This document shows, in pieces, positions 21,730 through 49,204 of a DNA stretch of 64,000 nucleotides (position 1 is its first letter; every line of letters starts with the position of its first letter). This DNA is from an uncultured virus (IMG/VR IMGVR_UViG_3300024348_000021) (Duplodnaviria; Heunggongvirae; Uroviricota; Caudoviricetes), in the IMG/VR virus record IMGVR_UViG_3300024348_000021. One strand, written 5' to 3'. The translations under genes were made by a program, and so were the position numbers. Below the pieces are notes generated by a model. That model was not told where the DNA came from. It searched no databases and saw only the letters and a list, made by a program, of their open reading frames with translations.

Positions 21730-22500
21730 ATGAACTATCCATTTATATCATGTAAGTGTATAACATATGGAAGAGTAGCCACGCTTGAGGAGAGCGTTGA
21801 GTCTTTCCTCAAGCAGGACTACCCTGCAGATAAGTGTGAACTCATCATAGTTAATGATTATCCCTTACAAACTCTTATATTTGATCATCCTCAAGTTAAG
21901 GTAGTTAACCTAGTTAAGACCTTTGAGACCATAGGAGAGAAAGAAAACTTTGCTACAGAACTGTGTCAAGGAGATATTATATGTCAATGGGACGATGATG
22001 ATATAGCTCTACCAAACCATCTAAATAATGTAGCTAAATACATGACAGAAGAAGTTAACATACTTCATTGGCAGATAGGTGTATTGTGTCATATTACAGG
22101 TATTGAGCAAGTTGGTTGGATAGGTAATTCTGGTCTTGTGTTTAGAAAAGCAGCTTGGAAAGCAATAGGGGGACATCCTCTTGAAAATGCTGGATATGAT
22201 ATGACTTTCATTGAAAGACTACATAAACATGGAGGTAGACTATTTGCTAGTCCACCTAAAGAAGAAGCCAGCTGGTTCTATATGTGGGGAGGAAGAGGAT
22301 ACCACATGAGTGGGGAAGGTACAGATCATCCTAAAAAACTCAACGCTATACAAAGACACAGTGCTCACATTGAATCTGAAAGACGTTTAGGAAAAGTTCC
22401 TACAGGAGATGTTCAATTAAATCCCCATTGGGATAAAGATTATTCAGAATTATTAAAAGACTATTTAAAATGGCACATCCAGAACAAAGAACCTTCATGA
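21730..22500 (+). CDS. glycosyltransferase family 2
   Basis: ITYGR...LEESVESFLKQDY..ELIIVND; IGEKEN; QWDDDD. Confidence 0.85.
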   Translation: MNYPFISCKCITYGRVATLEESVESFLKQDYPADKCELIIVNDYPLQTLIFDHPQVKVVNLVKTFETIGEKENFATELCQGDIICQWDDDDIALPNHLNNVAKYMTEEVNILHWQIGVLCHITGIEQVGWIGNSGLVFRKAAWKAIGGHPLENAGYDMTFIERLHKHGGRLFASPPKEEASWFYMWGGRGYHMSGEGTDHPKKLNAIQRHSAHIESERRLGKVPTGDVQLNPHWDKDYSELLKDYLKWHIQNKEPS

Positions 22501-23006
22501 CTTACGTAAAGGAAAAGTTTCCTGAGAAGTTTGTCAATTGTAGAGTGTTAGATGTTGGTTCATTAGATATTAATGGAAACAATAGATATCTATTTACAAA
22601 TTATAAGTACATTGGTGTAGATATTGGAGCAGGTAATAATGTAGATGTTGTATGTAGAGGACATGAGTTTAAAGACTCTGAAGGATTTGATATTGTTATA
22701 TCAGCTGAATGCTTTGAGCATGATGAGTTCTGGAAGGATACAATTAAAAACTGTATTGCTTTAACTAAACCAGGAGGAGTGTTCTTATTTAGCTGTGCTA
22801 CAACAGGGAGACCTGAGCATGGTACCAAGAGAAGTAATCCTCAAGACTCTCCATTTACATCCTTAATAGAAAATGATTACTATATGAATCTTACAGAACA
22901 AGATGTTCGTGAAGAGATAGATATGGAAAATCATTTCTCACAACATGAGTTTGTTGCTAGAGAAACATGGCCTCAAGATTTATATTTCTGGGGAATCAAG
23001 AAATAA
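22470..23006 (+). CDS. class I SAM-dependent methyltransferase
   Basis: VLDVGSLDING, GVDI, FDIVISAECFEHD, KPGG. Confidence 0.85.
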   Translation: MAHPEQRTFMTYVKEKFPEKFVNCRVLDVGSLDINGNNRYLFTNYKYIGVDIGAGNNVDVVCRGHEFKDSEGFDIVISAECFEHDEFWKDTIKNCIALTKPGGVFLFSCATTGRPEHGTKRSNPQDSPFTSLIENDYYMNLTEQDVREEIDMENHFSQHEFVARETWPQDLYFWGIKK

Positions 23007-26025: not shown

Positions 26026-26300
26026 TTTATTTCAAACACTATAGTTGCAGAACTCTTAATACTTTTAGATAGATTTAATCTAATCTTGAACAGGTTGTGT
26101 AGCTTTAATATCTCCTGCAGCAACATATCATTGTACATAGGCAATGAGGGAGCTAATCTAAAGTGGTACGAGAGAGGGTTCTTAGTGATCTCTAACGTAG
26201 AAAGTTCATCAACTGAAGCAATTACTCCCTCAAGATGTGCAAAATAAGCAAGTTCGTTATCTTGCATCACTTGAGGGAAGAATTTTTTATTTACTTGCAT
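26007..26300 (-). CDS. hypothetical protein
   Basis: 97-aa ORF coupled to the ferritin-like gene. Confidence 0.65.
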   Translation of the reverse strand: MQVNKKFFPQVMQDNELAYFAHLEGVIASVDELSTLEITKNPLSYHFRLAPSLPMYNDMLLQEILKLHNLFKIRLNLSKSIKSSATIVFEINLEDTQ

Positions 26301-26704
26301 TAAGACAAGGTTAATAAGTATTTAGTTTTTGCAGCTTCACCACTTAAGGCATCAGCTAAATTAGCTATGTCGTGATAGCTATTTGATTCAGCATAGCTTT
26401 TCAATGAAGATGCAAAAGATAAAAGATTTGAAACACACTCATTCCCTGTACAATTTGTAAGAGGTTCTATCTTGTATGGAGTGGGTCTTTTACCTGTATA
26501 TCCCATAAGCTTTTCAATTACACCATCTTTGAAATCATGTACGTAATCATACAATCCTCCTAGAGCTTGATGCTCTGCATAACTCTTTGTTTGCCAATGG
26601 GTTAAATGTAATTGCTCATGAAAATATGTAAGCTTCCCAGCTATTGTTTCCAAGTTTAATTCTCCTGATTTCATCATCTCCTCAGGGAATAATGATTTTG
26701 CCAT
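26300..26704 (-). CDS. ferritin/Dps-like protein (DUF5856-like)
   Basis: HLTHWQTKSYAEHQALGGLYD...DGVIEKLMG...KTKYLLTL. Confidence 0.75.
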   Translation of the reverse strand: MAKSLFPEEMMKSGELNLETIAGKLTYFHEQLHLTHWQTKSYAEHQALGGLYDYVHDFKDGVIEKLMGYTGKRPTPYKIEPLTNCTGNECVSNLLSFASSLKSYAESNSYHDIANLADALSGEAAKTKYLLTLS

Positions 26705-28356: not shown

Positions 28357-29358
28357 TTATCCTACTTGATTTACTGTTACAATAAGACCAGGAATAGCAG
28401 GAATGTTTCCTGTAGCTGCAGCTGATTGAATAGTTATTCCATCATCTACATTACTATTTATTTCCCATTTAAGTTGTACATATTCATTAGCACTTGTTGT
28501 CTTAAAGAAAAAGTTCCATGCTGGTACAACATATATAGAGTTGGAAGGAAATCCTATTTGTGAAGCACTATTAGGTACACTTACACCATTTTGTGCTAAC
28601 CAAATATGTATATGTGATGCAGTATTACCAGCAGTCTTTTGCATCTGTGCACTAAACGCTATACTATATACACCAGGATTAGCTATTGTTATTTGATTAC
28701 CAGAAACAATTGAAACACCACTGTTCCAAGAATCTGAATTATTAAGACCCATTGTAAGAACAGTTCCTGCAAGACCTGTTTGACTTGTAGTATCATAGAA
28801 AGATCCTAAATAACCACCAACAGCTCCATTAGCTCCACTAGTTCCAGCAGTTCCTGTAAGACCAGCTGTTCCAGCTGTACCACTTACTCCTGAACTTCCT
28901 GATTCACCTGATGTTCCTGAAGTACCATCTATACCAGAAGTACCAGTTTCGCCACTTGTTCCTGATGAACCATTATCACCTGAAGTTCCAGCTGTTCCAT
29001 TTATTCCACTAGTACCATCTATACCAGAAGTTCCATCAATTCCTGAAGTACCACTTGTTCCACTAACTCCATTAGTACCACTGATACCATTAGTACCACT
29101 GATACCATTAGTACCACTGATACCATTGGTACCACTGATACCAGACGTACCAGAAAGACCTGAAGTTCCAGACGTACCTACAACACCACTAGTTCCTGAT
29201 GTTCCTGATAAACCAGCAGCACCACTAGTACCAGACGTACCTGTTCCACCACCACCTGCGTTGTATGCAACACCATTTATAGCCTCTAATTGCTTAGAAA
29301 TTTGCCACAAGAGGTTTTCTTCTGTTCCCCATCCTATCTGTCTGCTTGGTATAGCCAT
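28357..29358 (-). CDS. Gly-Thr-Ser repeat fibre protein with C1q/BclA-CTD-like head
   Basis: [10 protein letters not shown]...[10 protein letters not shown] head, long (G-T/S-x)n stalk, C-terminal beta-sandwich ([32 protein letters not shown]). Confidence 0.7.
29069..29140. repeat. 18-bp tandem repeat, 4 copies (encodes GISGTN)
   Basis: CCATTAGTACCACTGATA x3 perfect, plus one copy with a single mismatch. Confidence 0.85.
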
Positions 29359-30410: not shown

Positions 30411-30712
30411 TAGTTAAGTTTTTTGATTGCTCCCAACTGTTGCAAAGTTTGCAACTGTGTAGTAGTTACAGCCTTAGCTGAATCACTAACTCTTAAAGAT
30501 TCTTGTACTCTATCTAATCTAGTTTCTACCTTATCAATACGTACATTCTGAGAAGCTGCTTGCTCTTTGAATGTTGTACGAACATCTACGTATAGGTATG
30601 AAATAGCAATGAGCACCAAGAAAAGGGTGCCCACTATTGGGTTTTTAGCAAACTCCTTAAAGCTTATTGGCAAAGGATTTGCTGAGATGTTTGTTTCTTT
30701 TTTCGCTGCCAT
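30410..30712 (-). CDS. single-TM coiled-coil protein (holin/spanin candidate)
   Basis: One TM helix (PIVGTLFLVLIAISYLYV), coupled to the endolysin. Confidence 0.5.
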   Translation of the reverse strand: MAAKKETNISANPLPISFKEFAKNPIVGTLFLVLIAISYLYVDVRTTFKEQAASQNVRIDKVETRLDRVQESLRVSDSAKAVTTTQLQTLQQLGAIKKLN

Positions 30713-31317
30713 TATATACTACCATTTAAAAGGTTATTGTATTCATTGAAGTGTTTGATACGATCTGGAAGACCAATTGTTCCACCATTAACACGTTTAG
30801 TCACCTTAGTAACTACTACGTCTGTAGCCCCCTCGTCAGCAATCTTATGTAATCCATTCTTATGGAAGAACCAAGCTGCAGATAAAAGTGGGTACTTTGT
30901 AGCTACAAGATCTGGAGTAGCTAGGATGTCATCTTCTACAGTCTTGTCAAAAGCTGTATAGTTATCCTTTCCTGTTAACTGGATGTAACCACGTCCTCTA
31001 AACTTATAGCCTTCACCAGAAGCCTGAGGACCATTACCCATACGATTAGCATAAACAATGTTAGCAATCTTTTCAGGCTTGCGTTGGTACTCTTTAGCAC
31101 TTTCAGGTGTAAAATACTTCTTAAAGATGCTCTGTAAACCAGCAGCACCATAGTTTAAGTTTTCTGTAACAACTTTGAATCCACCAGATTCATGTCCACA
31201 TTGGGCCAAGAAATGAGCTAAACGCAAAGGTGTATTGATTTCAAACTTATCTAATACACCAGGGATCTGTGCAATCACTGTATCAGGAACATGTCCTTTT
31301 AACTTGTCTATGTTCAT
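30712..31317 (-). CDS. endolysin, glycoside hydrolase family 19
   Basis: RLAHFLAQCGHESGGF, ENLNY, YANRMGN, FRGRGYIQLTGKDNY, VTKRVNGGTIGL.DR. Confidence 0.9.
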   Translation of the reverse strand: MNIDKLKGHVPDTVIAQIPGVLDKFEINTPLRLAHFLAQCGHESGGFKVVTENLNYGAAGLQSIFKKYFTPESAKEYQRKPEKIANIVYANRMGNGPQASGEGYKFRGRGYIQLTGKDNYTAFDKTVEDDILATPDLVATKYPLLSAAWFFHKNGLHKIADEGATDVVVTKVTKRVNGGTIGLPDRIKHFNEYNNLLNGSI

Positions 31318-32500: not shown

Positions 32501-32704
32501 TTACTTCAGACCATACTTGATCCACTTGTACCATATACGCTCATGGATAAAGTATTGGATGGGCTTATAGATAAGCTCAGCTACACCAAAGGCAGCTCCC
32601 ACCCTTATAGAACCAGATATCCACCACATCAAAAGGAACCCTATTAGGGTACTGATTATCCTATAGCTAATAGTCTTAGCTACATGTCTTTTAATTAGGG
32701 GCAT
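32501..32704 (-). CDS. DUF2061-like small membrane protein
   Basis: RHVAKTISYRIISTL...YFIHERIW; start moved to ATG 32704. Confidence 0.75.
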   Translation of the reverse strand: MPLIKRHVAKTISYRIISTLIGFLLMWWISGSIRVGAAFGVAELIYKPIQYFIHERIWYKWIKYGLK

Positions 32705-32713
32705 GCTTAGGGG

Positions 32714-32745
32714 CAAAACTAAGTAAAAAAGTTGAAACTACCAAA
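32714..32745 (-). promoter_or_regulatory. Bacteroidota sigma-A type promoter (very short leader)
   Basis: Minus strand TTTG-N20-TAGTTTTG ending about 10 nt before ATG 32704. Confidence 0.65.
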
Positions 32746-32751
32746 TCTTTT

Positions 32752-33129
32752 TTAGTAGGGCTGATAGGACTTCTCCTCTACAAAATCAGAGCCAAACTTC
32801 ATATTAATTTCTTTCTTAATACGTGCTCTTTCATCATTCAATTTGTATACATTTCTAGCAAAAGCTACAAACTCTTTACCAAAGTCTTTAGCTCTCTCTA
32901 GGTCCCTGAGATCATCTTCCACCTTCCATAGCTCCTTGTTGATTTCAAACAAGTTTTTGGTAAGAGGGTAGTCAGTCATCAATGGATCTTCTGTTTTAAG
33001 AACCTCTATAAGATATATTAATTCTTTCTTAACATTCTCTAACTTAGTAGGGTCCTGTATCTTAGATGCTTTGATCATAAGTATAGTGTACTTGTCTACA
33101 ATTTCTCCTAATGAAACTTCAATTTTCAT
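32752..33129 (-). CDS. DUF6165-like protein
   Basis: EVSLGEIVDKYTIL.IK...INKELWKVEDDLR...ARNVYKLNDERARIKKEIN...EEKSY. Confidence 0.75.
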   Translation of the reverse strand: MKIEVSLGEIVDKYTILMIKASKIQDPTKLENVKKELIYLIEVLKTEDPLMTDYPLTKNLFEINKELWKVEDDLRDLERAKDFGKEFVAFARNVYKLNDERARIKKEINMKFGSDFVEEKSYQPY

Positions 33130-33161
33130 AGCAAAATGTTTTTTATTTTAAACAAAAGTAG

Positions 33162-33169
33162 TACATTTG
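33162..33169 (+). promoter_or_regulatory. -7 element driving the modification operon
   Basis: TACATTTG ending 17 nt upstream of ATG 33187. Confidence 0.55.
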
Positions 33170-33186
33170 TAGTAAATATCCAAGAC

Positions 33187-33621
33187 ATGATTATAGTTAT
33201 TTTTGGGCAGCCTGGAGCTGGTAAAACCACCATAGCCCAACACTTTGTCAAAGACACCTTTCATCATATTGATGGGGACATATTACGAGACATTTTCAAG
33301 AACAAAGATTATAGTAGGGAAGGTAGGATCAAGAACCTAAATAGAGCTAGTGATATAGCCACCTACATAAACTCTGTATACTCAAATGTAGTGTTATCAG
33401 TGGTGTATCCTTATGAAGAATGTAGAGAGTATCTAAACAAATTAAATAAAGGTGTTAAATGGATCTATCTCATCTATCAAGAAGATAGAGGAAAAGACCA
33501 ATTTAAAGTGGAAGATTTTGAGCTTCCATATATGGATAATGTAGATTTAATTCTAAACACTTCAGTAGACTCAGTGGATGTGTGTGCTGATAAAATTAAA
33601 AATGTATGCAGAATATTCTAG
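33187..33621 (+). CDS. cysC: adenylylsulfate (APS) kinase-like protein
   Basis: GQPGAGKTT, HIDGDILR, DYSREGRIKN, VYPY..R, FELP; start moved to ATG 33187. Confidence 0.7.
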   Translation: MIIVIFGQPGAGKTTIAQHFVKDTFHHIDGDILRDIFKNKDYSREGRIKNLNRASDIATYINSVYSNVVLSVVYPYEECREYLNKLNKGVKWIYLIYQEDRGKDQFKVEDFELPYMDNVDLILNTSVDSVDVCADKIKNVCRIF

Positions 33622-33998
33622 CAAAGGGTAATGGTAAAGGAAATGGTTGGGCTATGTTTATAGGTAGATGGCAACCATGGCATGAAGGACATAGATGGTT
33701 AATTGATCAACAGTTAAACCAGGGAAAGAAGGTATGTATAGCTATTAGAGATATGGAAACTGATGAAAAGAATCCATACTCAGCAATTCAAGTAATGATG
33801 AATATCACCAATGAATTAATAGATCTTGTAGAAGAGGGTATGATAAGAATCATGATTGTTCCTGATATAGAAAGTATTAATTTTGGACGTGGTGTTGGCT
33901 ATGATATCATTGAACATATTCCTCCTGCAGAAATACATGACATCTCAGCAACAAAAATTAGAGAACAAATGAATAAGAATGAAGAAGATATTTTATAA
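33606..33998 (+). CDS. HxGH-family nucleotidyltransferase (cytidylyltransferase-like)
   Basis: FIGRWQPWHEGH, NPY, GRGVGY, ISATKIR. Confidence 0.75.
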   Translation: MQNILAKGNGKGNGWAMFIGRWQPWHEGHRWLIDQQLNQGKKVCIAIRDMETDEKNPYSAIQVMMNITNELIDLVEEGMIRIMIVPDIESINFGRGVGYDIIEHIPPAEIHDISATKIREQMNKNEEDIL

Positions 33999-34797
33999 CG
34001 CATCACTGCCTAGATCTGGGTCTACATTATTGCAAAATGTGCTAGCACAAAACCCAGACATATATGCCACTCCTACTAGTGGTCTATCTACATTACTGCA
34101 ATCAGCAAAAGAAACATACAGTAGGCGATCTGAGTTTGCTGCATTAGATACAGCTCTTATGAAGAAAGCTTTCTTAGGATTTTTAAGAGGAGGTATAGAA
34201 GGATTTACTAATAATCTTTCAGACAAGCAGTATATCTTAGATAAAAGTTTTAACTGGGGAGGTGATTACTATCTATTGAAATATATGTTCAATGGAGAGT
34301 CACCAAAGATTATAATAATGGTAAGAGATTTGCGTGAAACAATTGCTTCTATGGAATCACAGTATAGATTCTCTCCACAACATGTCTATCCTAAAGTTGA
34401 TTTAGAAACTACACAACTTACTACCTTAGAAAAAAGATTAAAATATTGGGGGACTACTAATCCTTTTGGATTGACTTTAGATTTTCTTCAAGAGATATTT
34501 ACAGCTAAGATAGAGAATGAAATATTTTTTGTAAAGTTTGAGGACTTTTGTCAATTTCCAGAACCTATCATAAGGAGTTTATATAAATATTTAGAAATCC
34601 CATATTTTGCTCATGACTTTGATAACATTGAACAAGTGACTGATCAGAACGATGGGTTCTATATATTCAGTCATAAGATACGAAAACAACTAAGACCTGT
34701 TGAACCTAAGGCTTTAGATATACTTGGACCAGAAGCATGTAACTGGGTGTATAAAAATTATGAGTGGTTCTTTAAAAAGTTTAATTATGCCTTATAG
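33979..34797 (+). CDS. sulfotransferase
   Basis: 5'-PSB SLPRSGSTLL, 3'-PB MVRDLRETIAS, VKFEDF. Confidence 0.85.
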   Translation: MKKIFYNASLPRSGSTLLQNVLAQNPDIYATPTSGLSTLLQSAKETYSRRSEFAALDTALMKKAFLGFLRGGIEGFTNNLSDKQYILDKSFNWGGDYYLLKYMFNGESPKIIIMVRDLRETIASMESQYRFSPQHVYPKVDLETTQLTTLEKRLKYWGTTNPFGLTLDFLQEIFTAKIENEIFFVKFEDFCQFPEPIIRSLYKYLEIPYFAHDFDNIEQVTDQNDGFYIFSHKIRKQLRPVEPKALDILGPEACNWVYKNYEWFFKKFNYAL

Positions 34798-35284
34798 CTC
34801 AACAGCGTTTAAAGAAGAAGTAAAGCGTCACATATTAGCTAACCTACCTCTTCATACTAAAATATTAGATGTAGGTCCTGGTGCAGGTACATATGGATCA
34901 ATGTTACGTGACTACTATAATATAGATGGATTAGAAATCCATGAGCCTTATATAGATAAGTTTAACCTTAGAAGTATATACAACAAAGTAATGGTGGGAA
35001 ACATCCTAGCATTTGACGTCTCTCCATATGATTATATTATATTAGGAGATGTACTAGAGCACATACCAAAGTATGAAGCTATCAATCTGGTAGCTAAGAT
35101 TAACTCTGCAGGTAAGAAGTGTTTAATAGCTGTACCTTATCTATATGAGCAAGGAGAGTATGATGGTAATGTACATGAGATACATCACCAACCAGACTTA
35201 ACAAATGAAATATTCCTAGAGAGATATCCAAGCATGCACTTGTTATATAAAGATGCAGGATATGGATACTATATAAATTATTAA
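34787..35284 (+). CDS. class I SAM-dependent methyltransferase
   Basis: ILDVGPGAG, DGLEI, YDYIILGDVLEH; start moved to ATG 34787. Confidence 0.8.
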   Translation: MPYSSTAFKEEVKRHILANLPLHTKILDVGPGAGTYGSMLRDYYNIDGLEIHEPYIDKFNLRSIYNKVMVGNILAFDVSPYDYIILGDVLEHIPKYEAINLVAKINSAGKKCLIAVPYLYEQGEYDGNVHEIHHQPDLTNEIFLERYPSMHLLYKDAGYGYYINY

Positions 35285-35285
35285 T

Positions 35286-35936
35286 ATGAGTAATATAGAA
35301 ACTTTATATCCCCATGGTGGATATATATTTAAACTACACTTTGACTTTGATTGGAAAACATTATATCCAATATGCAAAGAGTTAGTTAACTCAGAACTTG
35401 CATACTCTCCACTAGTAAAGAATGGTAAGAGTTCACATATGAACAAGCTATCTCCTCATAAGATAGAAGAATTTAGACCATATTATATGTGGTTGTCTTC
35501 TTTAATTAAAGAAATCTTTACAAAGAATTGTCAATACTCTGAGGATGTAATGGAATATTTTGTTGCTAATAGTTGGGTGAATGTACAAGGAAATGGAGGA
35601 CACACTACAGTGCACAATCATGCTAATGTATTTATGGTGGCAACTGCTTATTTGAATCTACCTAAAAATGGTGGGTTCTTTGAATGCGTAGATCCATTGG
35701 AGTATAACAAAAGTAATCAGTATCACGATGATCCTAATTGGATGTGGAAAGAAGTGCCTGCAATAACTGGTGATGTGTTAGTGTTTCCTGGTTGGTTAAA
35801 ACATAGAACACAAGTGAACAATGCTCACTCTAAATTACTTATTGATGACAATGGTGTAGGACGTGAGGAAAACTCATCTGAAGATAGATGGGTTTTGACT
35901 ACAAACTTTACACAAGAATTTAAAGAAATAGTATAA
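35286..35936 (+). CDS. 2OG-Fe(II) oxygenase (TIGR02466-like)
   Basis: SWVN, HNH, AYL, GDVLVFPGWLKHRT, RWVL..N. Confidence 0.75.
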   Translation: MSNIETLYPHGGYIFKLHFDFDWKTLYPICKELVNSELAYSPLVKNGKSSHMNKLSPHKIEEFRPYYMWLSSLIKEIFTKNCQYSEDVMEYFVANSWVNVQGNGGHTTVHNHANVFMVATAYLNLPKNGGFFECVDPLEYNKSNQYHDDPNWMWKEVPAITGDVLVFPGWLKHRTQVNNAHSKLLIDDNGVGREENSSEDRWVLTTNFTQEFKEIV

Positions 35937-36889
35937 TGAAACCAGTCTGTTTAAACTTAGAAGAATGTAATGGGTTAGGGGACCTTATATGTGCCACCCC
36001 CACCATCAAGAAACTACATGATGCATACCAAAGAAAGATCACTGTCATCTCTCAGATGCCTGAGCTATTTAAAATGAATCCCTATGTAGAGAAGAGCTAC
36101 AAAGCTGCATCAATAGATATGGATTATTTCAAAGCTAATTACATAATGCACAACTCTTTCTATCTAGTAGGTAAGAAGGATGAGCGTGGTATAGAGATGA
36201 AGCATAACATGATGGACATCAGACAGTTCCATGCTATACACCTAGGATTTATGCTTGGACAAAATGAACTAGAATGTTATTACAAACCTACAGAAGAAGA
36301 TGCTTGTACAGATGGATTTAGTGATAAAAGTACATCTGGTACCAAAAGATATATAGTGATACATCCTGTTAACAGCTGGCCTAATAGAACATGGTCACAA
36401 GAGAACTGGTTAAACTTATCTAAAGAATTGATTAAATGGGGATATAATGTAGTGGCTGTAGGAAAAGATAGCTCTGAGACAGGGTTCTTTAATGTACAGA
36501 AACCTGTACATGAGATGGACAATAACATTACTAATCTAATGAATAAGACATCCATATCTCAAACGTGGTATCTGATTAATAATGCTGCAGCTGTTATCAC
36601 CATGGACTCAGGTATTCTTCATCTAGCAGGTACAACAGAAACACCTATAATTGAATTAGGATCTCCCATCAACCCTGAGTTTCGTAGACCATATAGAAAG
36701 ACTAGTAAGCATATATACGTAAGAGGAGGCTGTGGATTACACTGCAGTTCTAACATGAAGTATGCTCTTGAGTATTGGCCTACGATAGACTACGTACAAC
36801 CACTGATTGGATGCTTAGAGAAGAAAGAAACCTTTGAGTGTCATCCATCTGTAGCACAAGTAATTCATGCAATTAACAATAACATATGA
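35936..36889 (+). CDS. glycosyltransferase family 9-like with C-terminal Cys cluster
   Basis: GLGDLICATP, IVIHP..SWPNRTW, DSGILHLAG, C..HC...C...EC. Confidence 0.8.
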   Translation: MKPVCLNLEECNGLGDLICATPTIKKLHDAYQRKITVISQMPELFKMNPYVEKSYKAASIDMDYFKANYIMHNSFYLVGKKDERGIEMKHNMMDIRQFHAIHLGFMLGQNELECYYKPTEEDACTDGFSDKSTSGTKRYIVIHPVNSWPNRTWSQENWLNLSKELIKWGYNVVAVGKDSSETGFFNVQKPVHEMDNNITNLMNKTSISQTWYLINNAAAVITMDSGILHLAGTTETPIIELGSPINPEFRRPYRKTSKHIYVRGGCGLHCSSNMKYALEYWPTIDYVQPLIGCLEKKETFECHPSVAQVIHAINNNI

Positions 36890-39549
36890 AAAAACTATTA
36901 ATCATCACTCCTCACTTATCAACAGGAGGAGCACCACAGGTAACTGTAAATAAAGTAGAACTATTAAAAGATCACTTTGAAATCAAAGTGGTAGAGTATG
37001 CATTCTTAGCATGGCAGTTTGTTGTACAAAGAAATAGAATCATTGACATGCTTACAGAAGGAGTTAACTTCCATTCTTTAGGAGAGAATAAGTTTGATGA
37101 ACTGTTGCAAATTCTGCAAGACTTCAAACCAGATGTAATCTCTATGGAAGAATTCCCTGAGATGTTTATGAATGAAGAATGTGCTGACTATATATATGAT
37201 GCAGAGAGACCATGGAAGGTTGTAGAAACTACACATGATAGTTCATTCAATCCTAAAAACAAATACTATCTACCTGATAAGTTTGTATTTGTCAGCTCAT
37301 ATAATTCATTCCAATACATTACATTAAATGTGCCTACAGAGGTAATTGAATATCCTATTGATAAGAAGGTTAGAAACAAGGTAGAAAGACAACAACAACT
37401 TGGCTTAGATCCTGAATACAAACACTTTGTAACTGTAGGGTTGTTTACTCCTAGAAAGAACCAAGCATATGCATTCCAGTTGGCAGAGAGACTTAAGAAC
37501 AACAAGGTTAAGTTTCACTTCCTAGGTAACCAAGCTGGTAACTTTGCTAACTATTGGCAACCATTGATGGCTAACAAACCAGACAACTGTGTTGTGTGGG
37601 GAGAGCGTAATGATGTAAGTGAATTCTTAGAAGCATGTGATGTGTTTTTGTTCCCATCTAAAGGAGACAGAGGTAATAAGGAGTTAAATCCTATTGCTAT
37701 TAAGGAAGCCATGGAATATGATGACTTGATCAAAGTAATGTACAACCTGGATGTATACTGTAACAAGTACAACGATGAAGAGAACATGGTTTATTTAACT
37801 GGAGATCTTGGTAGTGATACTACCAATATTATCAAAAAACTAAACCTAGATGTATTAGATGAAGAGTGTATCATCTTGGGCACCTATCCAAATATTAAGG
37901 ACAGAGTGCAATGGACCAAGGATACCATACTGTCTCTAAAGCCATTAGGTAGAAAGATTATACTAGTATCTCACTATCCTGTAGACCAGGACATACAACG
38001 TATGGTGGATTACTATATCTATGATAAGCACAACCCTTTAACTCACCACAGTTACTACACTAGGTTTTATCATGATACACCAGAGTACTTTGCTGAGATC
38101 AATATCAATGGATTGAAGGATAGCAATCAGTCCCTTACAGTGCTAGTAAACATGTTCAATGCAGCTAAGGTTGCTAAAGAGCTTGGATTCAAGAGATTCT
38201 TCTATACTACGTATGATGTTATGTTAGATCCTAGAGACATACCTGCAGTGAATGAAGCATTTAGAACAGATAAAAAGTTATATGCTGCTACACTACCTAC
38301 ACCACAGGGTAAAGGTATTCAGACCAATGGTATTATGTTTGACACAGACTTCTTCTTAAAAGAGTTTGATGATGTACGTACAGCAGAGGAATGGAATGCT
38401 GTATGTAAACGTAGAAGATGTGAGAACTATCTAGAAGACTATTTGTCAAAGGTTATTTTTAGCTTCAATCCTAATGATATTCAAGTGGTTACAACTGACA
38501 AGGATACTATGTTGATACACAGTGGGTTAGGTGTAGCATCTAATAGTGAGTATTATTCTATCATCCCTGTTGTTGGAAAACCAAACACTTATGTGTTCTA
38601 TTTCTTTACATATAACAGAGACTTTAGAAACATTTATATATCTATTGAAGATTACATGTGGAAAAGAATCATACCAGCTAAGAACCATGAACTTCTTTAT
38701 CAGTTTGAATTCAAAGGAGAACCTATTAATGTAAGAATGGATTTCTATGATGGTGATATAACTTATAAGGTGGAAGAGTTTATAATAAACAAAGACACAT
38801 TACCTCTATACAAAAATACAGGTAAGTTTCAATGGAAGAAGAAGGATAGACCTAAGATTAAATTAGTTCATATACAAACCACACTAAATGATGAAAGAGA
38901 AAGAGCAAGTAGAGACTCCCTTATCAGCGTTGTCAACCATGGATGGGAATATAAGTTACATCTTAACCAGCCCTATAAGTCATTACCACCATCATATAAC
39001 TGTCTCAGACCCAGTTGTGTTTCAATGGAACTCTTCAATGAGGAGCAAGTTCGACAGTATGGCACTGCACTTACCCCAGCACATTATGGATGCTATCAAG
39101 CATTCAAAGATGCCATCTTAAGTGAATTCAATAACTGTGACTACTTGATAGTGTGTGAAGGTGATTGTATTATTGAGACAGACATACACTTTTTCGTACA
39201 AAAAGTTGAGGAATGTGCACACTTATTGGGACCAAACAACATAGAGTTTATGTCCTTTGGAGATAAAGATACATTAGAACATGGATGGCCTCAGAGTCCT
39301 GTTATTAAAGATGTGAACGATGACATGTATGTCACTAATCATCTTATAGGTTTACAATGTATCATGTTCCCTGCACATGTATCTCCATGGTTAAAAGAAA
39401 CTTTAAGAATGCACAAATGGGATGCTGCTGATATGTATTTTAATAATATCTTTGCAGGAGACAAAATGGGTATAGTTAAGAAAAGACTTACCACACAGGC
39501 AGATGGATTTTCTTTAATAGACAACATGCAAAAAACATTTAGAAAATGA
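36886..39549 (+). CDS. multi-domain glycosyltransferase (GT4 + central domain + GT25-like)
   Basis: PHLSTGGAPQ, RKNQ, FLFPS, ELNPIAIKEA; central YYIYDKHN domain; C-terminal HYGCYQAF...CEGDC. Confidence 0.75.
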   Translation: MKKLLIITPHLSTGGAPQVTVNKVELLKDHFEIKVVEYAFLAWQFVVQRNRIIDMLTEGVNFHSLGENKFDELLQILQDFKPDVISMEEFPEMFMNEECADYIYDAERPWKVVETTHDSSFNPKNKYYLPDKFVFVSSYNSFQYITLNVPTEVIEYPIDKKVRNKVERQQQLGLDPEYKHFVTVGLFTPRKNQAYAFQLAERLKNNKVKFHFLGNQAGNFANYWQPLMANKPDNCVVWGERNDVSEFLEACDVFLFPSKGDRGNKELNPIAIKEAMEYDDLIKVMYNLDVYCNKYNDEENMVYLTGDLGSDTTNIIKKLNLDVLDEECIILGTYPNIKDRVQWTKDTILSLKPLGRKIILVSHYPVDQDIQRMVDYYIYDKHNPLTHHSYYTRFYHDTPEYFAEININGLKDSNQSLTVLVNMFNAAKVAKELGFKRFFYTTYDVMLDPRDIPAVNEAFRTDKKLYAATLPTPQGKGIQTNGIMFDTDFFLKEFDDVRTAEEWNAVCKRRRCENYLEDYLSKVIFSFNPNDIQVVTTDKDTMLIHSGLGVASNSEYYSIIPVVGKPNTYVFYFFTYNRDFRNIYISIEDYMWKRIIPAKNHELLYQFEFKGEPINVRMDFYDGDITYKVEEFIINKDTLPLYKNTGKFQWKKKDRPKIKLVHIQTTLNDERERASRDSLISVVNHGWEYKLHLNQPYKSLPPSYNCLRPSCVSMELFNEEQVRQYGTALTPAHYGCYQAFKDAILSEFNNCDYLIVCEGDCIIETDIHFFVQKVEECAHLLGPNNIEFMSFGDKDTLEHGWPQSPVIKDVNDDMYVTNHLIGLQCIMFPAHVSPWLKETLRMHKWDAADMYFNNIFAGDKMGIVKKRLTTQADGFSLIDNMQKTFRK

Positions 39550-40559
39550 GAATAGTACACGTAGCTACAGGACTAATTACCATACCACCAAATGGATGGG
39601 GAGCTGTAGAAAGACTTATATGGGAATATAAACAAGGACTTGAGAAGCTTGGTGATGTTGTAGACATCAGATATATGAATGAGCTAGAGAGATGGCCTGA
39701 TACAATTGTACACGCACATCTAGCTAACCAGGCTTTGTATTGTAGAGACAAAGGTATACCTTATGTATATTCTCTACATGATCATCATACAGAATGGTAT
39801 GGTAAAGATAGCTGGGTATATAAGCAAAACCTAGAGGCTATGAAACATAGCATTATATCTTTTACACATGCTGAGTATCTGATAGACTATTTCAGTGAGA
39901 CTGATAAGTTGTTCTATCTAAGACATGGAGCTAACACAGAATTCTTCACACCAGAATACAGAATGGGTCCACATAAACTATTGATGATAGCTAACAATGG
40001 ACTAGCAGGTGACTCAGGCTTTGATAGAAAAGGATTTAGATATGGTATAGAAGCAGCTAGAGAACTAGATCTTCCTATCACCATTGCTGGTCATCCTAAT
40101 AATGAGAAGTTCTTTGATATACATATAGAGTTAATGAACTATAAAAAGTTAACTTTAAAGTTAACAAATCCTACAGATGAAGAAGTCAGAGAATTGTATC
40201 AAGATCATAGCATCTTCTTACATCCATCTATGCTAGAAGCAGGACATCCTAACCTTACATTATGTGAAGCAGCTAGCTCTTGTATACCTATTGTAGGAAC
40301 CTACAGAGGATCTAAACACTTCCCTGGTATGTGGGTGTTACCAAACATCAGTACAGAGAGTGTAATGCTTGGTATTACAGAGACAATTAAGACATACGAA
40401 CATCGTGTAAAAGAAATGCAAGATGCACGTGACTATCACAGCTGGGACAATGTAGCTAAGACATTACATAAATACTATGAGAATATTTCTAAGATAACTG
40501 AAGGATATGACTCAGAGAAGACAAAACAATTATACATCAATTTATACAATAATTTATGA
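39546..40559 (+). CDS. glycosyltransferase family 4
   Basis: IPPNGWGAVE, RKG, FLHPS.LEAGHPNLTLCEA, SWDNV. Confidence 0.85.
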   Translation: MRIVHVATGLITIPPNGWGAVERLIWEYKQGLEKLGDVVDIRYMNELERWPDTIVHAHLANQALYCRDKGIPYVYSLHDHHTEWYGKDSWVYKQNLEAMKHSIISFTHAEYLIDYFSETDKLFYLRHGANTEFFTPEYRMGPHKLLMIANNGLAGDSGFDRKGFRYGIEAARELDLPITIAGHPNNEKFFDIHIELMNYKKLTLKLTNPTDEEVRELYQDHSIFLHPSMLEAGHPNLTLCEAASSCIPIVGTYRGSKHFPGMWVLPNISTESVMLGITETIKTYEHRVKEMQDARDYHSWDNVAKTLHKYYENISKITEGYDSEKTKQLYINLYNNL

Positions 40560-41152
40560 GAGTAGAAATGTTATCAATTGCAGACTTCTATAATAACGTA
40601 GATGAGGTGAGAAACTTTGCAATGCAACAAGAATTTCTTGGTGAAGAAGCTCACTTCCCAGGTAAGAGAACTAAATCATTTTTAAATGATAGTGTTAAAG
40701 AGATAATTCAAAGTACCATGAGACCATTTGCAGGAGACGTTACGTGGTGGGGAGATCACAACTCTGGAGCATTTCAATACACCACAGCAGCAGACAGATC
40801 GTGGATACACTCTGATGGTAATGCTGATTGGGCTGGTGTACTTTATCTAACTCCTGATGCACCATTAAGTTCAGGTACAGGGATATTTAAACATAAAGCA
40901 ACTGGTCTTAGAAACTGGATATATAAAGATCATTTTACAGAAGAAGATAAATATGGTGTTAAAGATGCACCTCATCGTGGTGCTGATTCTGTTGACTATA
41001 CCAAATGGGAGATGGTGGATAGAATAGGTAATATGTATAATAGACTTATAATATATAGAGGTGATCTATTTCATGTATCTTTGGATTACTTTGGTAAAGA
41101 TTTACAAACAGGAAGATTGTTTCAAACATTCTTTTTTAATACAGAGAAATGA
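40556..41152 (+). CDS. 2OG-Fe(II) oxygenase (DUF6445-like)
   Basis: DFY...VR, FPG.RT, WIHSD, AGVLYLTP, YNRL....FH, RLFQTFF. Confidence 0.7.
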   Translation: MRVEMLSIADFYNNVDEVRNFAMQQEFLGEEAHFPGKRTKSFLNDSVKEIIQSTMRPFAGDVTWWGDHNSGAFQYTTAADRSWIHSDGNADWAGVLYLTPDAPLSSGTGIFKHKATGLRNWIYKDHFTEEDKYGVKDAPHRGADSVDYTKWEMVDRIGNMYNRLIIYRGDLFHVSLDYFGKDLQTGRLFQTFFFNTEK

Positions 41153-42246
41153 TAACATACAATTTACACCATGTTAATGGTCTTTATTTTCAGCTATTAG
41201 ATGATGCTGGTAAGAATAGAGAATATGATATAAGTTTTGTAGATAGAAAAGGTAAGGTGGAAGGTATGCTTACAGATCAACATGTAACTATCTATGAAAC
41301 AAAATTAAAGATAGGAGGTTGGGCTAGACTAAGTAGAAAGTATCTATCTGATATAGCCATATTTATTAAATATGAAGGACGTATAGTCAAGCAAGTAAAC
41401 TTGTTAGACGAGCTTAAAGATAAACCTGTGTTTATTGTATTTGAATCTAAGAGTCTTGGTGATAGCATAGCTTGGATGCCATATTGTTTAGAGATGCAAG
41501 AAGTTTATAAATGTAAGGTGATTGTATCTACATTTAAGAATGAGTTGTTTGAATCTGTTTATCCTGAACTAAAGTTTGTAGGCAGAGGAGTAACAGTAGA
41601 TAATATCAAAGCAATGGTTGAACTAGGATGGTTTTGGGAAACTGATAAAGAACCTGTACACCCTGCAACTATACCATTACAACAAGCAGCAAGTAATATA
41701 TTAGCTTTACCATTTAGAGAGATACAACCTAGGATAGCTTTCACACCAGGAGAAAGACCTGTAGTTAATCAGTACATCTGTATATCAACTAGATCTACAG
41801 CACAATGTAAGCATTGGTATTATTGGCCACAGCTAATAGAAAAACTAAAGAGCTGGGGATACAGAGTGTTTGAGCTTTCACAAGAAGCAGATGACTATGG
41901 AGCAGAGACATTAGAAGATAAATCATTACAGAACGTAATGAACTATCTACATCATGCAGATATGTTTATTGGTCTTTCTAGTGGTATCAGCTGGTTGAAC
42001 TGGGGTATAGGTAAACACACTGTAATGATTTCTAACTTCACAACACCTGATCATGAATTCCAAGATAACTGTACACGTATAGTTAACTTAGAAGTATGTA
42101 ATGGCTGTTGGAATAATCCTGTGTTCAAGTTTAATAAAGGTGACTGGAACTGGTGTCCAGAGCATGAAGATACACCTAGACACTTTGAGTGTCATAAGTC
42201 AATCACTGTGGATACAGTATTAGAAACAATAAAACAATTATTATGA
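41149..42246 (+). CDS. Aah/TibC-like (autotransporter heptosyltransferase family) protein O-glycosyltransferase
   Basis: SLGDSIAW, AQCKHW, FIGLSSGISWL.W, ISNFT...EF, CNGCWN...WCP.H...FEC.KSI. Confidence 0.7.
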   Translation: MITYNLHHVNGLYFQLLDDAGKNREYDISFVDRKGKVEGMLTDQHVTIYETKLKIGGWARLSRKYLSDIAIFIKYEGRIVKQVNLLDELKDKPVFIVFESKSLGDSIAWMPYCLEMQEVYKCKVIVSTFKNELFESVYPELKFVGRGVTVDNIKAMVELGWFWETDKEPVHPATIPLQQAASNILALPFREIQPRIAFTPGERPVVNQYICISTRSTAQCKHWYYWPQLIEKLKSWGYRVFELSQEADDYGAETLEDKSLQNVMNYLHHADMFIGLSSGISWLNWGIGKHTVMISNFTTPDHEFQDNCTRIVNLEVCNGCWNNPVFKFNKGDWNWCPEHEDTPRHFECHKSITVDTVLETIKQLL

Positions 42247-42890
42247 AAGGAGAAGTATTTGGGATATTCCCAACACCAGTTTTGAAATTCAAAATGGATA
42301 GAGACTTTACTAAAGAAGAGATAGACTTTATATATGATCAACAGGATAAGGTTCCTCAACCTCCATACTTTATAAATTTAGGAAACATTGCTACGACTAG
42401 TAAGAGAATTCTTGAGCGTCCAGAGATGGCTAGTTTAAAAAAGATTGTAGAAGATTGTTTGAATCAATGGTGCATTAATATTTATGCTCCTCGCAACCCT
42501 GAGTCATTTAAACTAAAGATAACTCAATCTTGGTTAAACTATACAAAACCAGGAGAGCGTCATGATAGACACTATCATCCAAATAGTATAGTGAGTGGTG
42601 CTATTTATATAGATACTAATCCAGTGCAAGATCAGATTACATTTAACTCTGGTAAGATGTATGATTACTATATACCATGGATTGCTTTGAATCAATTCAA
42701 CTCCATGGAATCTACTATATCTTTAGATAAAAAAGATATAGTTTTATTTCCTTCTAACTTAAATCATTCTGTTCCAGAAAATACAGGAACAACTACAAGA
42801 GTTAGCTTAGCATTTAATTCTTTCTTTGAAGGTACTCTTGGAGTTTCTTCTGATGTACCAAACTATATACAGTTCAATAGTGTAGAATAA
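42243..42890 (+). CDS. 2OG-Fe(II) oxygenase (TIGR02466-like)
   Basis: IFPTP, ITQSWLN, HYHPNS.VSG..Y, LFPSNLNHSV, RVSLAFN. Confidence 0.8.
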   Translation: MKGEVFGIFPTPVLKFKMDRDFTKEEIDFIYDQQDKVPQPPYFINLGNIATTSKRILERPEMASLKKIVEDCLNQWCINIYAPRNPESFKLKITQSWLNYTKPGERHDRHYHPNSIVSGAIYIDTNPVQDQITFNSGKMYDYYIPWIALNQFNSMESTISLDKKDIVLFPSNLNHSVPENTGTTTRVSLAFNSFFEGTLGVSSDVPNYIQFNSVE

Positions 42891-42925: not shown

Positions 42926-43519
42926 TTATTTATAATGTCCTCCTCCCACCCAGAGAACAAATGAACGTCTCACTCCTTTAGTAACAGGTGTCACTCTATG
43001 CATCATGTAAGAAGGGAATATAAATACCACTCCTTTTCCTCTTGGTGCTTTTTGTATATCTTGACCACCTTTCCAGTATTCAAGATCACCTCCTTCATAT
43101 TCATCAGGACCTGATAGTTGAACTGTAATACTTACTTTTCTTGTAGATAGAGCACCAGGACCAATGTCTTGATGCCATCCATAATGTCCATCATTAGTTG
43201 CATGGTATTCTGTATATTGAATATCATCTAACACTGAATACAGATCAAAGTTCCAAACATTATCATTGGCTTCTATAATCATAGCCATCATTTTATCATA
43301 TAGCCATCCCCACTCTTTATTTTTTGGAACCCATTTAACAGATGAAGATCTTATACTTTTATCTTGGTTATTTTCTGGACCAGTTCCAGCATTTATAAAT
43401 TGAATATTTGCAACATCTTTATATATCTTATCTAGCTCTTCATCAGTAAATCCTTTTTCAAAGAAATAATAATTTTGAGTATCTACTAACTTTGGTTCAA
43501 ACAATACATTGGAATACAT
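42926..43519 (-). CDS. 2OG-Fe(II) oxygenase (prolyl-hydroxylase/PKHD-like)
   Basis: IQYTEY, YGWHQD, RKVS..VQLS...YEGGDL, FPSY..HRVTPVT.G.RRS.V.W. Confidence 0.85.
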   Translation of the reverse strand: MYSNVLFEPKLVDTQNYYFFEKGFTDEELDKIYKDVANIQFINAGTGPENNQDKSIRSSSVKWVPKNKEWGWLYDKMMAMIIEANDNVWNFDLYSVLDDIQYTEYHATNDGHYGWHQDIGPGALSTRKVSITVQLSGPDEYEGGDLEYWKGGQDIQKAPRGKGVVFIFPSYMMHRVTPVTKGVRRSFVLWVGGGHYK

Positions 43520-43555: not shown

Positions 43556-44854
43556 TTAAATATAAAGTTTTTCTTTTTCTGCTAGTTTAGCATCTAACTC
43601 TTGAAGAGCTTTTATCATTACACCTAATGAAGAGTTGATATCAATTCTATCATGTTTACTTGTAGCTAGTTCCTCTGGAGTATCTTCAGCTATGAAACCT
43701 ATTCTAGTTGTATCATCCTGTCCATCCAGTTCATATTTATATGTAACTATCTCCGTACTATCTATTAGATCCATAGCAGATGCTGTAAATGGTTCTATGT
43801 TAGTCTTAACTTCTTCTGTAGATACAGTGAAGAAATAAGTAGATCCTATCGAAGCAAATGTATACCATCCAAATCCTTCTCCAAAAAAGGTTGGAGTTGA
43901 AGGACTTATCATTCCTCTATGACCACCTTGGTAAAATCTTTGTGCAGTATACCATTGACTTGTTGTTACACCTCCTTCAAAAACTGAATTATTACTAGCA
44001 TTCAATGATTGGTTATTACTATTTGATGGGCCCTGAGGACCTTGAGCCCCTTGAGGACCTGTGGGTCCTTGTGGTCCAGGACCTCCTGTTGCACCTATTG
44101 GTCCAGTTGGTCCTTGAAAACCTGTAAGTCCTTGTGGACCTTGTGGACCTGTAGCACCAGTAGGTCCATTTACCCCTGATACACCACTAGATCCTGTTGA
44201 ACCAGTGGGACCTTGTGTTCCTGTTGGACCTGTAGAACCAGTGGGACCATTAACTCCTGAAGAACCTGATGTTCCAGAAACTCCTGATGAAGCTGAAGAT
44301 CCTGAAGAACCTGATGTACCACTTCCACCTGATGCACCTGTTGTAGCAGAAGAACCATTGGTTCCACTTGATCCAGACGTACCACTTTCTGCAGACGTTC
44401 CTGAAGATCCACTCGTACCACTCGTACCTGTTGTACCAGATTGAGCAGAGTCACCTGCTGTTCCTGATGATCCACCTGTTCCAGATGAACCTGCAGATGC
44501 ACTTGTGCCAGAGGTTGCAGCTGTTCCAGATGTACCAGAACTATCACTTTCTCCAGACGTTCCCACTGTAGCACTAGTACCAGCAGTACCAGCAGTACCA
44601 GCAGTTGCTGAGATACTTGATGTACCTGATGTAGCAGCTGTTCCATTGTATCCTGTTAAAGATACAGTCCAACTACTATATGATCCAGATCCTTTATAGT
44701 CATATGGAGTGATTACTAATACACCAGTACCAGAATCATAAGATACAACTCTACCAATTATATAATTATTAGCATCATAACTTACTTGGACGAAGTCATT
44801 GACAACGAACGCAAGTCCTGTACTAACATTAAATGTCATATTAGAGTATGGCAT
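43556..44854 (-). CDS. fibre protein: N-module + GTS repeat + collagen + S74-like intramolecular chaperone (paralog 3)
   Basis: GPTG/GPQG triplets; STEEVKTNI...YKY...IGFIAED...KALQELD. Confidence 0.8.
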
Positions 44855-44856
44855 AA

Positions 44857-45225: not shown

Positions 45226-45235
45226 ATCTTTATTT

Positions 45236-47828: not shown

Positions 47829-47837
47829 ATATATTTA

Positions 47838-49181: not shown

Positions 49182-49204
49182 TTATATTTATTTTATATTT
49201 TTAT

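Follow-up and report, generated by a model that had tools for sequence, protein, structure and literature searches.

A very small HxGH nucleotidyltransferase partnered with APS kinase in phages and uncultured prokaryotes, a candidate third class of ATP sulfurylase

Background

Sulfate activation is carried out by two known types of enzyme, Sat and CysDN. Phage cysC genes, which encode adenosine 5'-phosphosulfate (APS) kinases, are, going by titles and abstracts, routinely listed as auxiliary genes for sulfate assimilation. A locus in a genome segment of an uncultured virus of the Caudoviricetes (IMG/VR IMGVR_UViG_3300024348_000021; the whole stretch analysed, 64,000 nucleotides, is called the window below) raises the question of what such a gene does in the company of two others, i.e., a 130-aa nucleotidyltransferase (NT) and a sulfotransferase of the type that uses 3'-phosphoadenosine 5'-phosphosulfate (PAPS), and in particular which reaction NT would catalyze. 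We consider it likely, on genomic support, that NT represents a new, very small, third class of ATP sulfurylase, and that the three overlapping genes probably form a self-contained sulfation module. Going by titles and abstracts, no description of such a small or novel ATP sulfurylase was found in the published literature, and no literature joining a viral auxiliary cysC with a sulfotransferase was found either.

A preliminary description of this DNA, made from the letters alone, had read the trio as such a module, NT as a stripped-down ATP sulfurylase and the phage cysC as a virion-modification gene. All five open reading frames (ORFs) that it named, including the two divergent genes upstream (Table 1), were recovered in place, and the overlaps within the trio hold (16 nt between kinase and NT, 20 nt between NT and sulfotransferase; start and stop codons checked).

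Linkage and fusion of the nucleotidyltransferase with APS kinase

Loci were collected around 80 of the 599 confirmed viral relatives of NT and 80 of the 553 cellular ones, and genes were annotated in 40 of them (20 viral and 20 cellular). All 80 viral loci and 74 of the 80 cellular ones have a gene of the APS-kinase family at most 3.5 kb from NT and in the same orientation, and the arrangement is thus not a matter of chance. In every viral locus the kinase is upstream of NT (adjacent in 72, 279-2557 bp away in eight), and the cellular loci comprise 44 adjacent pairs, eight fusions with the kinase first, 18 fusions with NT first, four near pairs, one distant pair and five loci without a kinase. 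The cellular sources are phylogenetically wide, i.e., Marinimicrobia, Flavobacteriales and other Bacteroidota, Pelagibacteraceae, Omnitrophota, Planctomycetota, Acidobacteriota, Nitrospiraceae, Verrucomicrobiota, bacteria of the candidate phyla radiation and several archaea.

Among 49 long cluster representatives, 32 are fusions of an APS_kinase domain with NT, in either order (22 kinase-first, 10 NT-first), and 14 of the 21 fusions tested pass the cut-off of the apsK equivalog TIGR00455, with scores of up to 257 bits vs a cut-off of 138.7. As these partners score as full CysC, the NT-CysC protein (ca. 300 aa) therefore fills the same slot as the fusions Sat-CysC (ca. 580 aa) and CysN-CysC (ca. 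640 aa), both of which were encountered in this analysis. The same two domains occur in cultured phages, but as one polypeptide, in PHROG 10255 (e.g., gp35 of Xylella phage Sano), whose members are labelled merely "kinase", "adenylylsulfate kinase" or hypothetical; of the 230 positions of its profile, the window kinase matches 2-87 and NT 134-229, and the window pair is 34-40% identical to the cultured-phage copies by tblastn.

Other domains are also found fused to NT, namely DUF2061 (P0150, 214 aa), a methyltransferase (P0255, 329 aa) and DUF6717 (P0175, 249 aa). DUF2061 is a two-helix membrane protein and may tether the enzyme to the membrane.

Absence of Sat and CysD in genomes encoding the nucleotidyltransferase

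Fifty NT-bearing genomes contain Sat in four cases, CysD or a strong CysD-like protein in six and apsK above the cut-off in 32. Eight of these 32 also encode Sat or a CysD-like protein and 24 encode neither, among them a complete 4.5-Mb chromosome (G027), which is also without any PAPS_reduct gene, and a complete Haladaptatus genome (G047), where a sulfotransferase and a kinase-NT fusion lie together on a plasmid. The control set was an even sample of 300 genomes of Bacteroidota (completeness filter 90; the central genome, G041, excluded from the counts). NT was found in none of the 300 and apsK in 109, of which 89 have CysD and 17 of the remaining 20 have Sat, i.e., 106 with either; two of the three that have neither show partial apsK matches only. 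Absence of both Sat and CysD thus stands at 24/32 in NT genomes vs 3/109 in controls (Fisher p = 3e-17), or 6/8 vs 3/109 (p = 7e-7) for assemblies of at least 3.5 Mb, figures to be read with the two groups differing in taxonomy and the rows being phylogenetically non-independent.

Sequence and predicted fold of the nucleotidyltransferase

NT carries the signatures H26-E-G-H29 and I113-S-A-T-K-I-R119. The window protein falls just short of PF01467 (20.9 bits, cut-off 21), whereas relatives pass. Archaeal models of nicotinamide mononucleotide (NMN) adenylyltransferase (NMNAT) match at E 4e-9 and far under their cut-offs, the equivalogs TIGR01527 and NF002243 being missed three- to five-fold (33.0 vs 181.2 bits and 36.3 vs 127 bits). 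The Sat model PF01747 gives no match to the window NT at E <= 0.01, and a relative, P0181, matches it at 21.6 bits, below threshold. The family is large, with at least 8000 proteins of 71-228 aa and 1115 clusters at 50% identity with E <= 1e-3, and its members go by labels such as "NMN adenylyltransferase", "cytidyltransferase-like" and "phosphopantetheine adenylyltransferase", the fusions by "adenylyl-sulfate kinase". The window NT is 58-62% identical to those of Marinimicrobia; among the annotated Marinimicrobia loci, L082 and L094 have NT adjoining a canonical CysC (225-226 bits), in L094 together with a sulfotransferase.

Against solved structures, the family profile finds the archaeal NMNAT MJ0541 first (E 6.6e-13), followed by NadM and NadR. 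Profile positions 9-79 align with NMNAT residues 4-75 and positions 89-121 with residues 110-140, so that ca. 25 NMNAT residues after the PDIE strand are lacking in NT and NMNAT residues 141-168 (ca. 28, C-terminal) have no counterpart. The AlphaFold model (mean pLDDT, i.e., predicted local distance difference test, 88.8) has the HxGH fold, and the top 32 rows of a structure search with it all belong to the HxGH nucleotidyltransferase superfamily. The matches include NMNAT 1f9a at Z 10.2, phosphopantetheine adenylyltransferase (PPAT) at Z 9.8 and NadM at Z 9.5, with ATP sulfurylases (1v47, 4maf, 1x6v, 1j70, 2gks and 4dnx) aligning over 110-117 residues at Z 5.2-7.8, the best being 1v47 at 7.8. 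Foldseek returned nothing at E <= 1e-3, its best match being an NMNAT at E 1.6e-3. Comparing the NT profile with an alignment of the Sat domain (10 Sat sequences from genomes) by hhalign gives a probability of 85% and E 6.3e-6, and pairs HxGH with HRAH, GVG with GVG and ISAT with LSGT. The Sat motifs QxRNPxHxxH and GRDHAG are absent as such (Sat consensus FQTRNPMHRAH and VGRDHAGVG; NT family GRWQPxHxGH and YGRxVGY), and only the two histidines, the GR and the GVG-like stretch correspond. Across 43 diverse members H26 and R119 do not vary, and conservation reaches 90% or more at G20, R21, Q23, G28, H29, S114 and T116; beyond the catalytic signature, R48 and G94-R95 are conserved too.

Judged from sequence and model, NT is a member of the HxGH nucleotidyltransferase superfamily that is nearer to NMNAT than to Sat and sits in neither family. 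The suggestion of a stripped-down ATP sulfurylase is strongly supported by the fusions, the neighborhood and the gene loss as regards the proposed function, but not as regards ancestry, as the enzyme is not derived from Sat and is closest to archaeal/NadM NMNAT.

The kinase and the sulfotransferase

The window kinase passes PF01583 (cut-off 21.1 bits) over positions 2-102 of 152 only, reaches 33 vs 138.7 bits with the TIGR00455 apsK equivalog, under cut-off, and has NF004041 (51 bits) as its top NCBIfam match. As related proteins start directly ahead of the P-loop, the ATG at 33187 is probably the real start codon (145 aa), which would leave a divergent intergenic region of 57 bp. It keeps the P-loop, DGDxxR, DYS, GR..N and PY motifs, with ca. 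20 lid residues deleted relative to canonical CysC; G7, G12, K13, D31, R34, R47, P75 and R80 are invariant, and we take the conserved residues to be linked to APS binding. Among solved structures it is closest to APS kinases (8a8h, E 7e-6, and 2yvu). This "lite" kinase accompanies NT in phages, Marinimicrobia, marine group III archaea and SAR11, and a full CysC is the partner in other lineages.

The sulfotransferase passes its family models clearly (PF13469, 49.6 vs 27 bits; PF00685, 38.5 vs 22 bits) and matches PHROG 27463 at E 7.8e-31. By eye, its translation contains the stretches LPRSGSTLL and VRDLRETIAS, presumably the 5'-phosphosulfate (5'-PSB) and 3'-phosphate (3'-PB) binding motifs.

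Gene neighborhoods in cells and phages

At least 20 of the 80 cellular loci have a sulfotransferase-like ORF no more than 6 kb away (19 by a homology sweep, plus L102, which was unseeded there), and the same sweep places a sulfotransferase near the kinase-NT pair in 8/80 viral loci. Sulfotransferases are present in the annotated cellular loci L086, L090, L094, L102, L103, L107 and L144, the last a plasmid locus of Haladaptatus halobius; L103 also has a sulfatase, and in L121 an Inositol_P (CysQ-like) gene follows the fusion. In a metagenome-assembled genome (MAG) of Nitrospiraceae (L108, 2664-6411) an operon without a kinase joins sulfite reductase-TusA, CysH and a 178-aa NT, and L116 is likewise without a kinase. 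The L108 CysH has CC and CxxC cysteines, which we take to be the mark of APS-dependent reductases; if this holds, the reductase would be APS-dependent and the operon would therefore need an APS-forming enzyme alone. No neighbor of NT from the NAD or CoA pathways was found in the 40 annotated loci. In a phage relative (L002) a Peptidase_S74 protein precedes the sulfotransferase-kinase-NT set.

Several loci show other company. In a marine group III archaeon (L101, 2948-7609) the kinase-NT pair sits between genes for S-adenosylhomocysteine hydrolase, S-adenosylmethionine (SAM) synthetase and serine hydroxymethyltransferase, and in Pelagibacter HIMB2226 (SAR11; L143) among GCV_T/MTHFR-like and enoyl-CoA hydratase genes, i.e., a methyl-cycle or one-carbon context without a sulfotransferase in both. 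In two phage loci (L035, 4240-5363, and L060, 3165-5345) a 112-aa HAD/PNKP-type phosphatase lies between kinase and NT, which could be a 3'-phosphatase of 3'-phosphoadenosine 5'-phosphate; these contigs also hold QueC, PTPS, radical-SAM, carbamoyltransferase and 2-oxoglutarate (2OG) oxygenase genes. A related phage (L010, 2478-5097) has a cupin, a CTP_transf_like protein, a PfkB kinase and an epimerase between kinase and NT, a complete-looking ADP-heptose set that adjoins a 1139-aa fusion of a methyltransferase with glycosyltransferase (GT) domains of families 4 and 9 (MT-GT4-GT9). The fused gene of phage Sano lies close to a "cysteine dioxygenase" and a MazG-like gene, in an early/DNA-metabolism setting.

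A proposed route to sulfated products

We propose that NT moves AMP from ATP onto sulfate, because it is fused to APS kinase in both orders, has sulfotransferase, CysQ-like and APS-reductase neighbors, and is present where Sat and CysDN are missing. The products would be APS and pyrophosphate. The cut-down kinase, going by its family and its preserved motifs, would phosphorylate the 3'-OH of APS to yield PAPS, and the sulfotransferase, recognizable by its fold, would pass the sulfate to an acceptor, probably a glycan made by the adjacent glycosyltransferases, methyltransferase and oxygenases. Coupling or fusion to APS kinase may pull the unfavorable sulfurylase equilibrium forward. NT may have derived from NMNAT-like HxGH enzymes by losing the parts that hold the large NMN substrate, and such a loss would fit a small anion as substrate.

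A number of observations weigh against sulfate as the substrate of NT or against sulfation as the use of its product. The nearest relatives by sequence (MJ0541) and by structure (1f9a, with 1v47 behind it) are NMNATs, and PF01747 does not recognize the window protein. Most NT-bearing MAGs and single-amplified genomes are of unreported completeness, and part of the gene loss may consist of assembly gaps. NT coexists with Sat or a CysD-like protein in 9 of the 50 genomes (the eight with a true apsK, and G014); in L105 CysD-like and CysN-like genes lie directly beside an NT-CysC fusion, for which reason NT would be dispensable there, and a Sat-CysC fusion (587 aa in the L108 genome) is also encoded by both of the Nitrospiraceae genomes that have the Sir-CysH-NT operon. 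In Campylobacter an APS-kinase homologue acts on a non-sulfate donor (PMC11800397). Most phage loci have no sulfotransferase near the pair, and in a search of 22 phage records, 21 of them 6-59% complete, a 173-kb phage that is 95% complete and carries the pair gave just a sub-threshold Sulfotransfer_2 match. The fused gene stands among DNA-metabolism genes in both cultured phages inspected (Xylella phage Sano and Stenotrophomonas phage DLP_6), and no sulfotransferase was found nearby in either record. To recast phage cysC at large as a virion-modification gene is thus over-general, given the few viral loci with a sulfotransferase and a near-complete phage without a clear one.

Alternative functions

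The most serious alternative, which we nevertheless regard as unlikely, is that NT and kinase make a different 3'-phosphorylated nucleoside-diphospho donor, resembling that of O-methyl phosphoramidate (MeOPN), and that the "sulfotransferase" and the methyltransferase install this group. The precedent is the pair of the nucleotidyltransferase Cj1416 and the APS-kinase homologue Cj1415 of Campylobacter; the latter is, we assume, annotated as CysC, and the former is presumably not of the HxGH type, which we count against the analogy. Such a donor would agree with the preference of the window kinase for NF004041 over TIGR00455 and with the recurrence of methyltransferases beside or fused to NT (the window, L103, L107 and P0255), and it would likewise predict the absence of Sat and CysD. 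The cited route, i.e., Cj1415-Cj1418 building CDP-phosphoramidate 3'-phosphate for MeOPN in C. jejuni, is described in PMC11800397 and also treated in PMC3907429. Neither a glutamine-kinase-like (PEP-utilising) domain nor a Cj1417-like amidohydrolase domain is seen by Pfam in the 58 window ORFs, the transferase looks like any other sulfotransferase of the PAPS type, full CysC scores are common among the partner kinases, and NT occurs with APS reductase and sulfite reductase (L108) and with a sulfatase (L103), all of which speak against this alternative.

The three further possibilities are weaker than this one. Quite unlikely, in our estimate, is an adenylyltransferase for NMN or nicotinate mononucleotide, with the kinase as nicotinamide-riboside kinase, i.e., a NadR-like NAD salvage pair acting against NAD-depleting defenses, and a coincidental link to the sulfotransferase. 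The top sequence and fold matches (archaeal/NadM NMNAT and NadR) favor it, as do the NMNAT labels given by JGI to many members and the position of most phage and cultured-phage pairs among nucleotide/DNA-metabolism genes without a sulfotransferase. Set against these are the wide margins by which the NMNAT models are missed (33 vs 181 and 36 vs 127 bits), the loss of the two NMNAT segments (ca. 25 residues after PDIE and ca. 28 at the C-terminus), a kinase that belongs to PF01583 and not to the NadR kinase type, cellular partners that are bona fide CysC, and 40 annotated loci without a Nampt, Nudix, NadE or similar neighbor; nor would this function account for the missing Sat and CysD.

We hold it decidedly unlikely that the substrate of NT is a sugar phosphate or some other phosphate ester, activated for the glycosyltransferases nearby (an HldC-like reaction giving ADP-heptose to GT9, or one that is PPAT-like or gives CDP-glycerol), while the kinase makes PAPS from host APS. 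A gene of the GT9 heptosyltransferase family does lie 2 kb downstream, and PPAT, glycerol-3-phosphate and phosphocholine cytidylyltransferases and HldC align with the NT model at Z 6.7-9.8; NT is, however, too short for a large acceptor compared with these enzymes, it tracks APS kinase and not glycosyltransferases in 154/160 loci, and in L010 the phage has its own CTP_transf_like/PfkB/epimerase (HldE/HldD-like) genes, so that NT has another job there. An ADP-heptose adenylyltransferase serving GT9 was rejected for the separate HldE/HldD-like set between kinase and NT in L010, and a CoA route (PPAT plus dephospho-CoA kinase) because the kinase is of the APS_kinase family and the 40 annotated loci hold no CoA genes.

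It is highly improbable that NT has no catalytic role and serves APS kinase as a regulatory, assembly or nucleotide-sensing domain, comparable to the inactive ATP-sulfurylase-like domain found in the enzyme of Thiobacillus denitrificans. The alignment with 3cr8 (Z 6.2) and the coexistence with CysDN or Sat in 9/50 genomes would suit such a role, but the catalytic signature is strictly kept in 43 diverse members and NT stands without any kinase in 5/80 cellular loci.

The genomic island around the trio

The window is a segment of a phage genome with replication genes (DnaB-like, RecA, a ribonucleotide reductase-like gene and dUTPase). The trio opens an island of glycosyltransferases and oxygenases (Table 1). 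Homologues of the methyltransferase-like gene occur in 5/80 viral loci, a DUF2061 homologue adjoins NT in 13/80 viral and 3/80 cellular loci, and a DUF6165 homologue is present in only 3/80 viral loci. Longer DUF2061 proteins were of little help, as 53 are labelled DUF2061 alone and no informative fusion besides P0150 was found, and no sulfate topic was found in the DUF2061 literature, going by titles and abstracts. By blastn, 32501-36900 had no match in 50,697 phage records, and the nearest virus record (G001) is without NT.

Table 1 Positions of the trio, of the genes around it and of the fused homologues in cultured phages
Record	Position	Strand	Feature	Match or remark
Window	30712-31317		GH19 endolysin	
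Window	32501..32716	-	DUF2061 small membrane protein, 71 aa	PF09834 E 5.8e-15; divergent from operon
Window	32752..33129	-	DUF6165-like protein, 125 aa	PF19662 E 2.1e-11; divergent upstream
Window	33136..33621	+	Cut-down APS-kinase-family P-loop kinase	PF01583 38.7 bits
Window	33606..33998	+	130-aa HxGH/ISxTxxR nucleotidyltransferase (NT)	Candidate APS-forming sulfate adenylyltransferase
Window	33979..34797	+	PAPS-type sulfotransferase, 272 aa	PF13469 E 8e-13; PF00685 E 1.1e-9
Window	34724..35284	+	SAM-methyltransferase-like protein	Methyltransf_23 E 2.4e-5, under cut-off
Window	35286..35936	+	2OG-Fe(II) oxygenase	PF13759 E 8e-13
Window	35936..36889	+	GT9 (heptosyltransferase-family) glycosyltransferase	PF01075 E 2.6e-23
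Window	36886..39549	+	887-aa protein with GT4/GT1 glycosyltransferase domain	PF00534 E 7e-10
Window	39546..42890	+	GT1-like gene, DUF6445, 365-aa protein of no assigned family, second 2OG oxygenase	
Window	42926..43519	-	P4H-like 2OG-Fe(II) oxygenase	PF13640; adjoins collagen-repeat genes; closes island
L171	4587-5324		Fused kinase-NT, Xylella phage Sano gp35	
L172	4593-5324		Fused kinase-NT, Stenotrophomonas phage DLP_6	

Six proteins with collagen-triple-helix repeats are encoded at 43556-51790 (-) and 28357-29358 (-), two of them with a Peptidase_S74 fiber-chaperone domain, and the rise of GC to 0.41-0.43 within the window is due to these genes. Given the adjoining P4H-like oxygenase and the glycosylation/sulfation island, they may be hydroxylated, glycosylated fibers. 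A phage product as the target of sulfation, as the preliminary description had it, is plausible because the island adjoins five of the collagen-repeat genes (43556-51790) and has three 2OG oxygenases, one of them P4H-like. Modification of the phage's own fibers is thus a reasonable guess, with a host surface glycan equally open.

Elsewhere in the window, there are two giant ORFs without a Pfam match, at 51956-56917 (-; 1653 aa) and 56921-64000 (-; at least 2274 aa), the second of which runs off its end. A second, small pair of a GT2 glycosyltransferase and a methyltransferase is found at 21730-23006 (+), distant from the main island. A DUF5856 protein is encoded at 26300-26704 (-); in many phage loci from freshwater the family recurs downstream of kinase and NT, a few genes away, alongside DUF3310 and an N6/N4 DNA methylase.

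Implications

Taking the parts together, we lean slightly towards a joint reading, in which the NT family (115-130 aa) would be the third, independently derived and smallest known class of ATP sulfurylase, and would serve as the sole APS/PAPS route in hundreds of phages and in many uncultured marine and soil lineages (SAR406, some Flavobacteriales, Pelagibacteraceae, Omnitrophota, Planctomycetota, Acidobacteriota and several archaea), and in which, at this locus, it would feed a sulfotransferase that decorates collagen-like tail fibers with the help of neighboring hydroxylases and glycosyltransferases. If true, a third and miniature type hidden under "NMNAT/cytidylyltransferase" labels would alter the reading of sulfur metabolism from genomes, and organisms scored as unable to activate sulfate, e.g., the SAR11 relatives found here, would have to be re-scored. 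Viral "cysC" would need interpreting jointly with its partner NT, and in no fewer than one case in ten it would count as belonging to a sulfation (decoration) module. NT would also illustrate clearly how an enzyme can gain a new substrate by shedding substrate-binding parts, and as it is small and easily expressed, the claim is directly testable.

Comparison with known systems

The enzymes that share the proposed reaction and an HxGH-type superfamily with NT are Sat, Sat-CysC and the PAPS synthases (PF01747; 1v47, 2gks, 1x6v and 1j70). Like NT, Sat is found beside or fused to APS kinase in either order; unlike Sat (ca. 390 aa), NT has 115-130 aa, lacks the PUA-like N-terminal domain and carries GRWQPxHxGH and YGRxVGY in place of QxRNPxHxxH and GRDHAG. 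Archaeal/NadM NMNATs (TIGR01527 and NF002243; 1f9a, 1ej2 and 2qjt) share GRFQPFHxGH-like and ISGTxIR-like motifs with NT, but their full core of ca. 165-180 aa comprises a stretch following the DIE strand as well as C-terminal helices, both of which NT is without, whereas R48 and G94-R95 are newly conserved in NT and its genomic partners are CysC and sulfotransferases, never (in the annotated loci) NAD genes. The MeOPN pathway of C. jejuni resembles the window trio in that a small nucleotidyltransferase and an APS-kinase-like 3'-kinase yield a PAPS-like donor for capsule decoration (PMC11800397); it differs in needing a glutamine kinase (Cj1418) and a hydrolase (Cj1417), neither found in the window, and in using other transferases.

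CysDN, which NT appears to replace in genomes that are without it, has an unrelated fold (CysD is a PAPS-reductase-like ATP pyrophosphatase) and is coupled to GTP, whereas NT has no GTPase subunit. The logic of the locus is nonetheless that of CysDN with CysC and of the rhizobial NodPQ with NodH, i.e., a sulfate-activation set beside a sulfotransferase that decorates a glycan.

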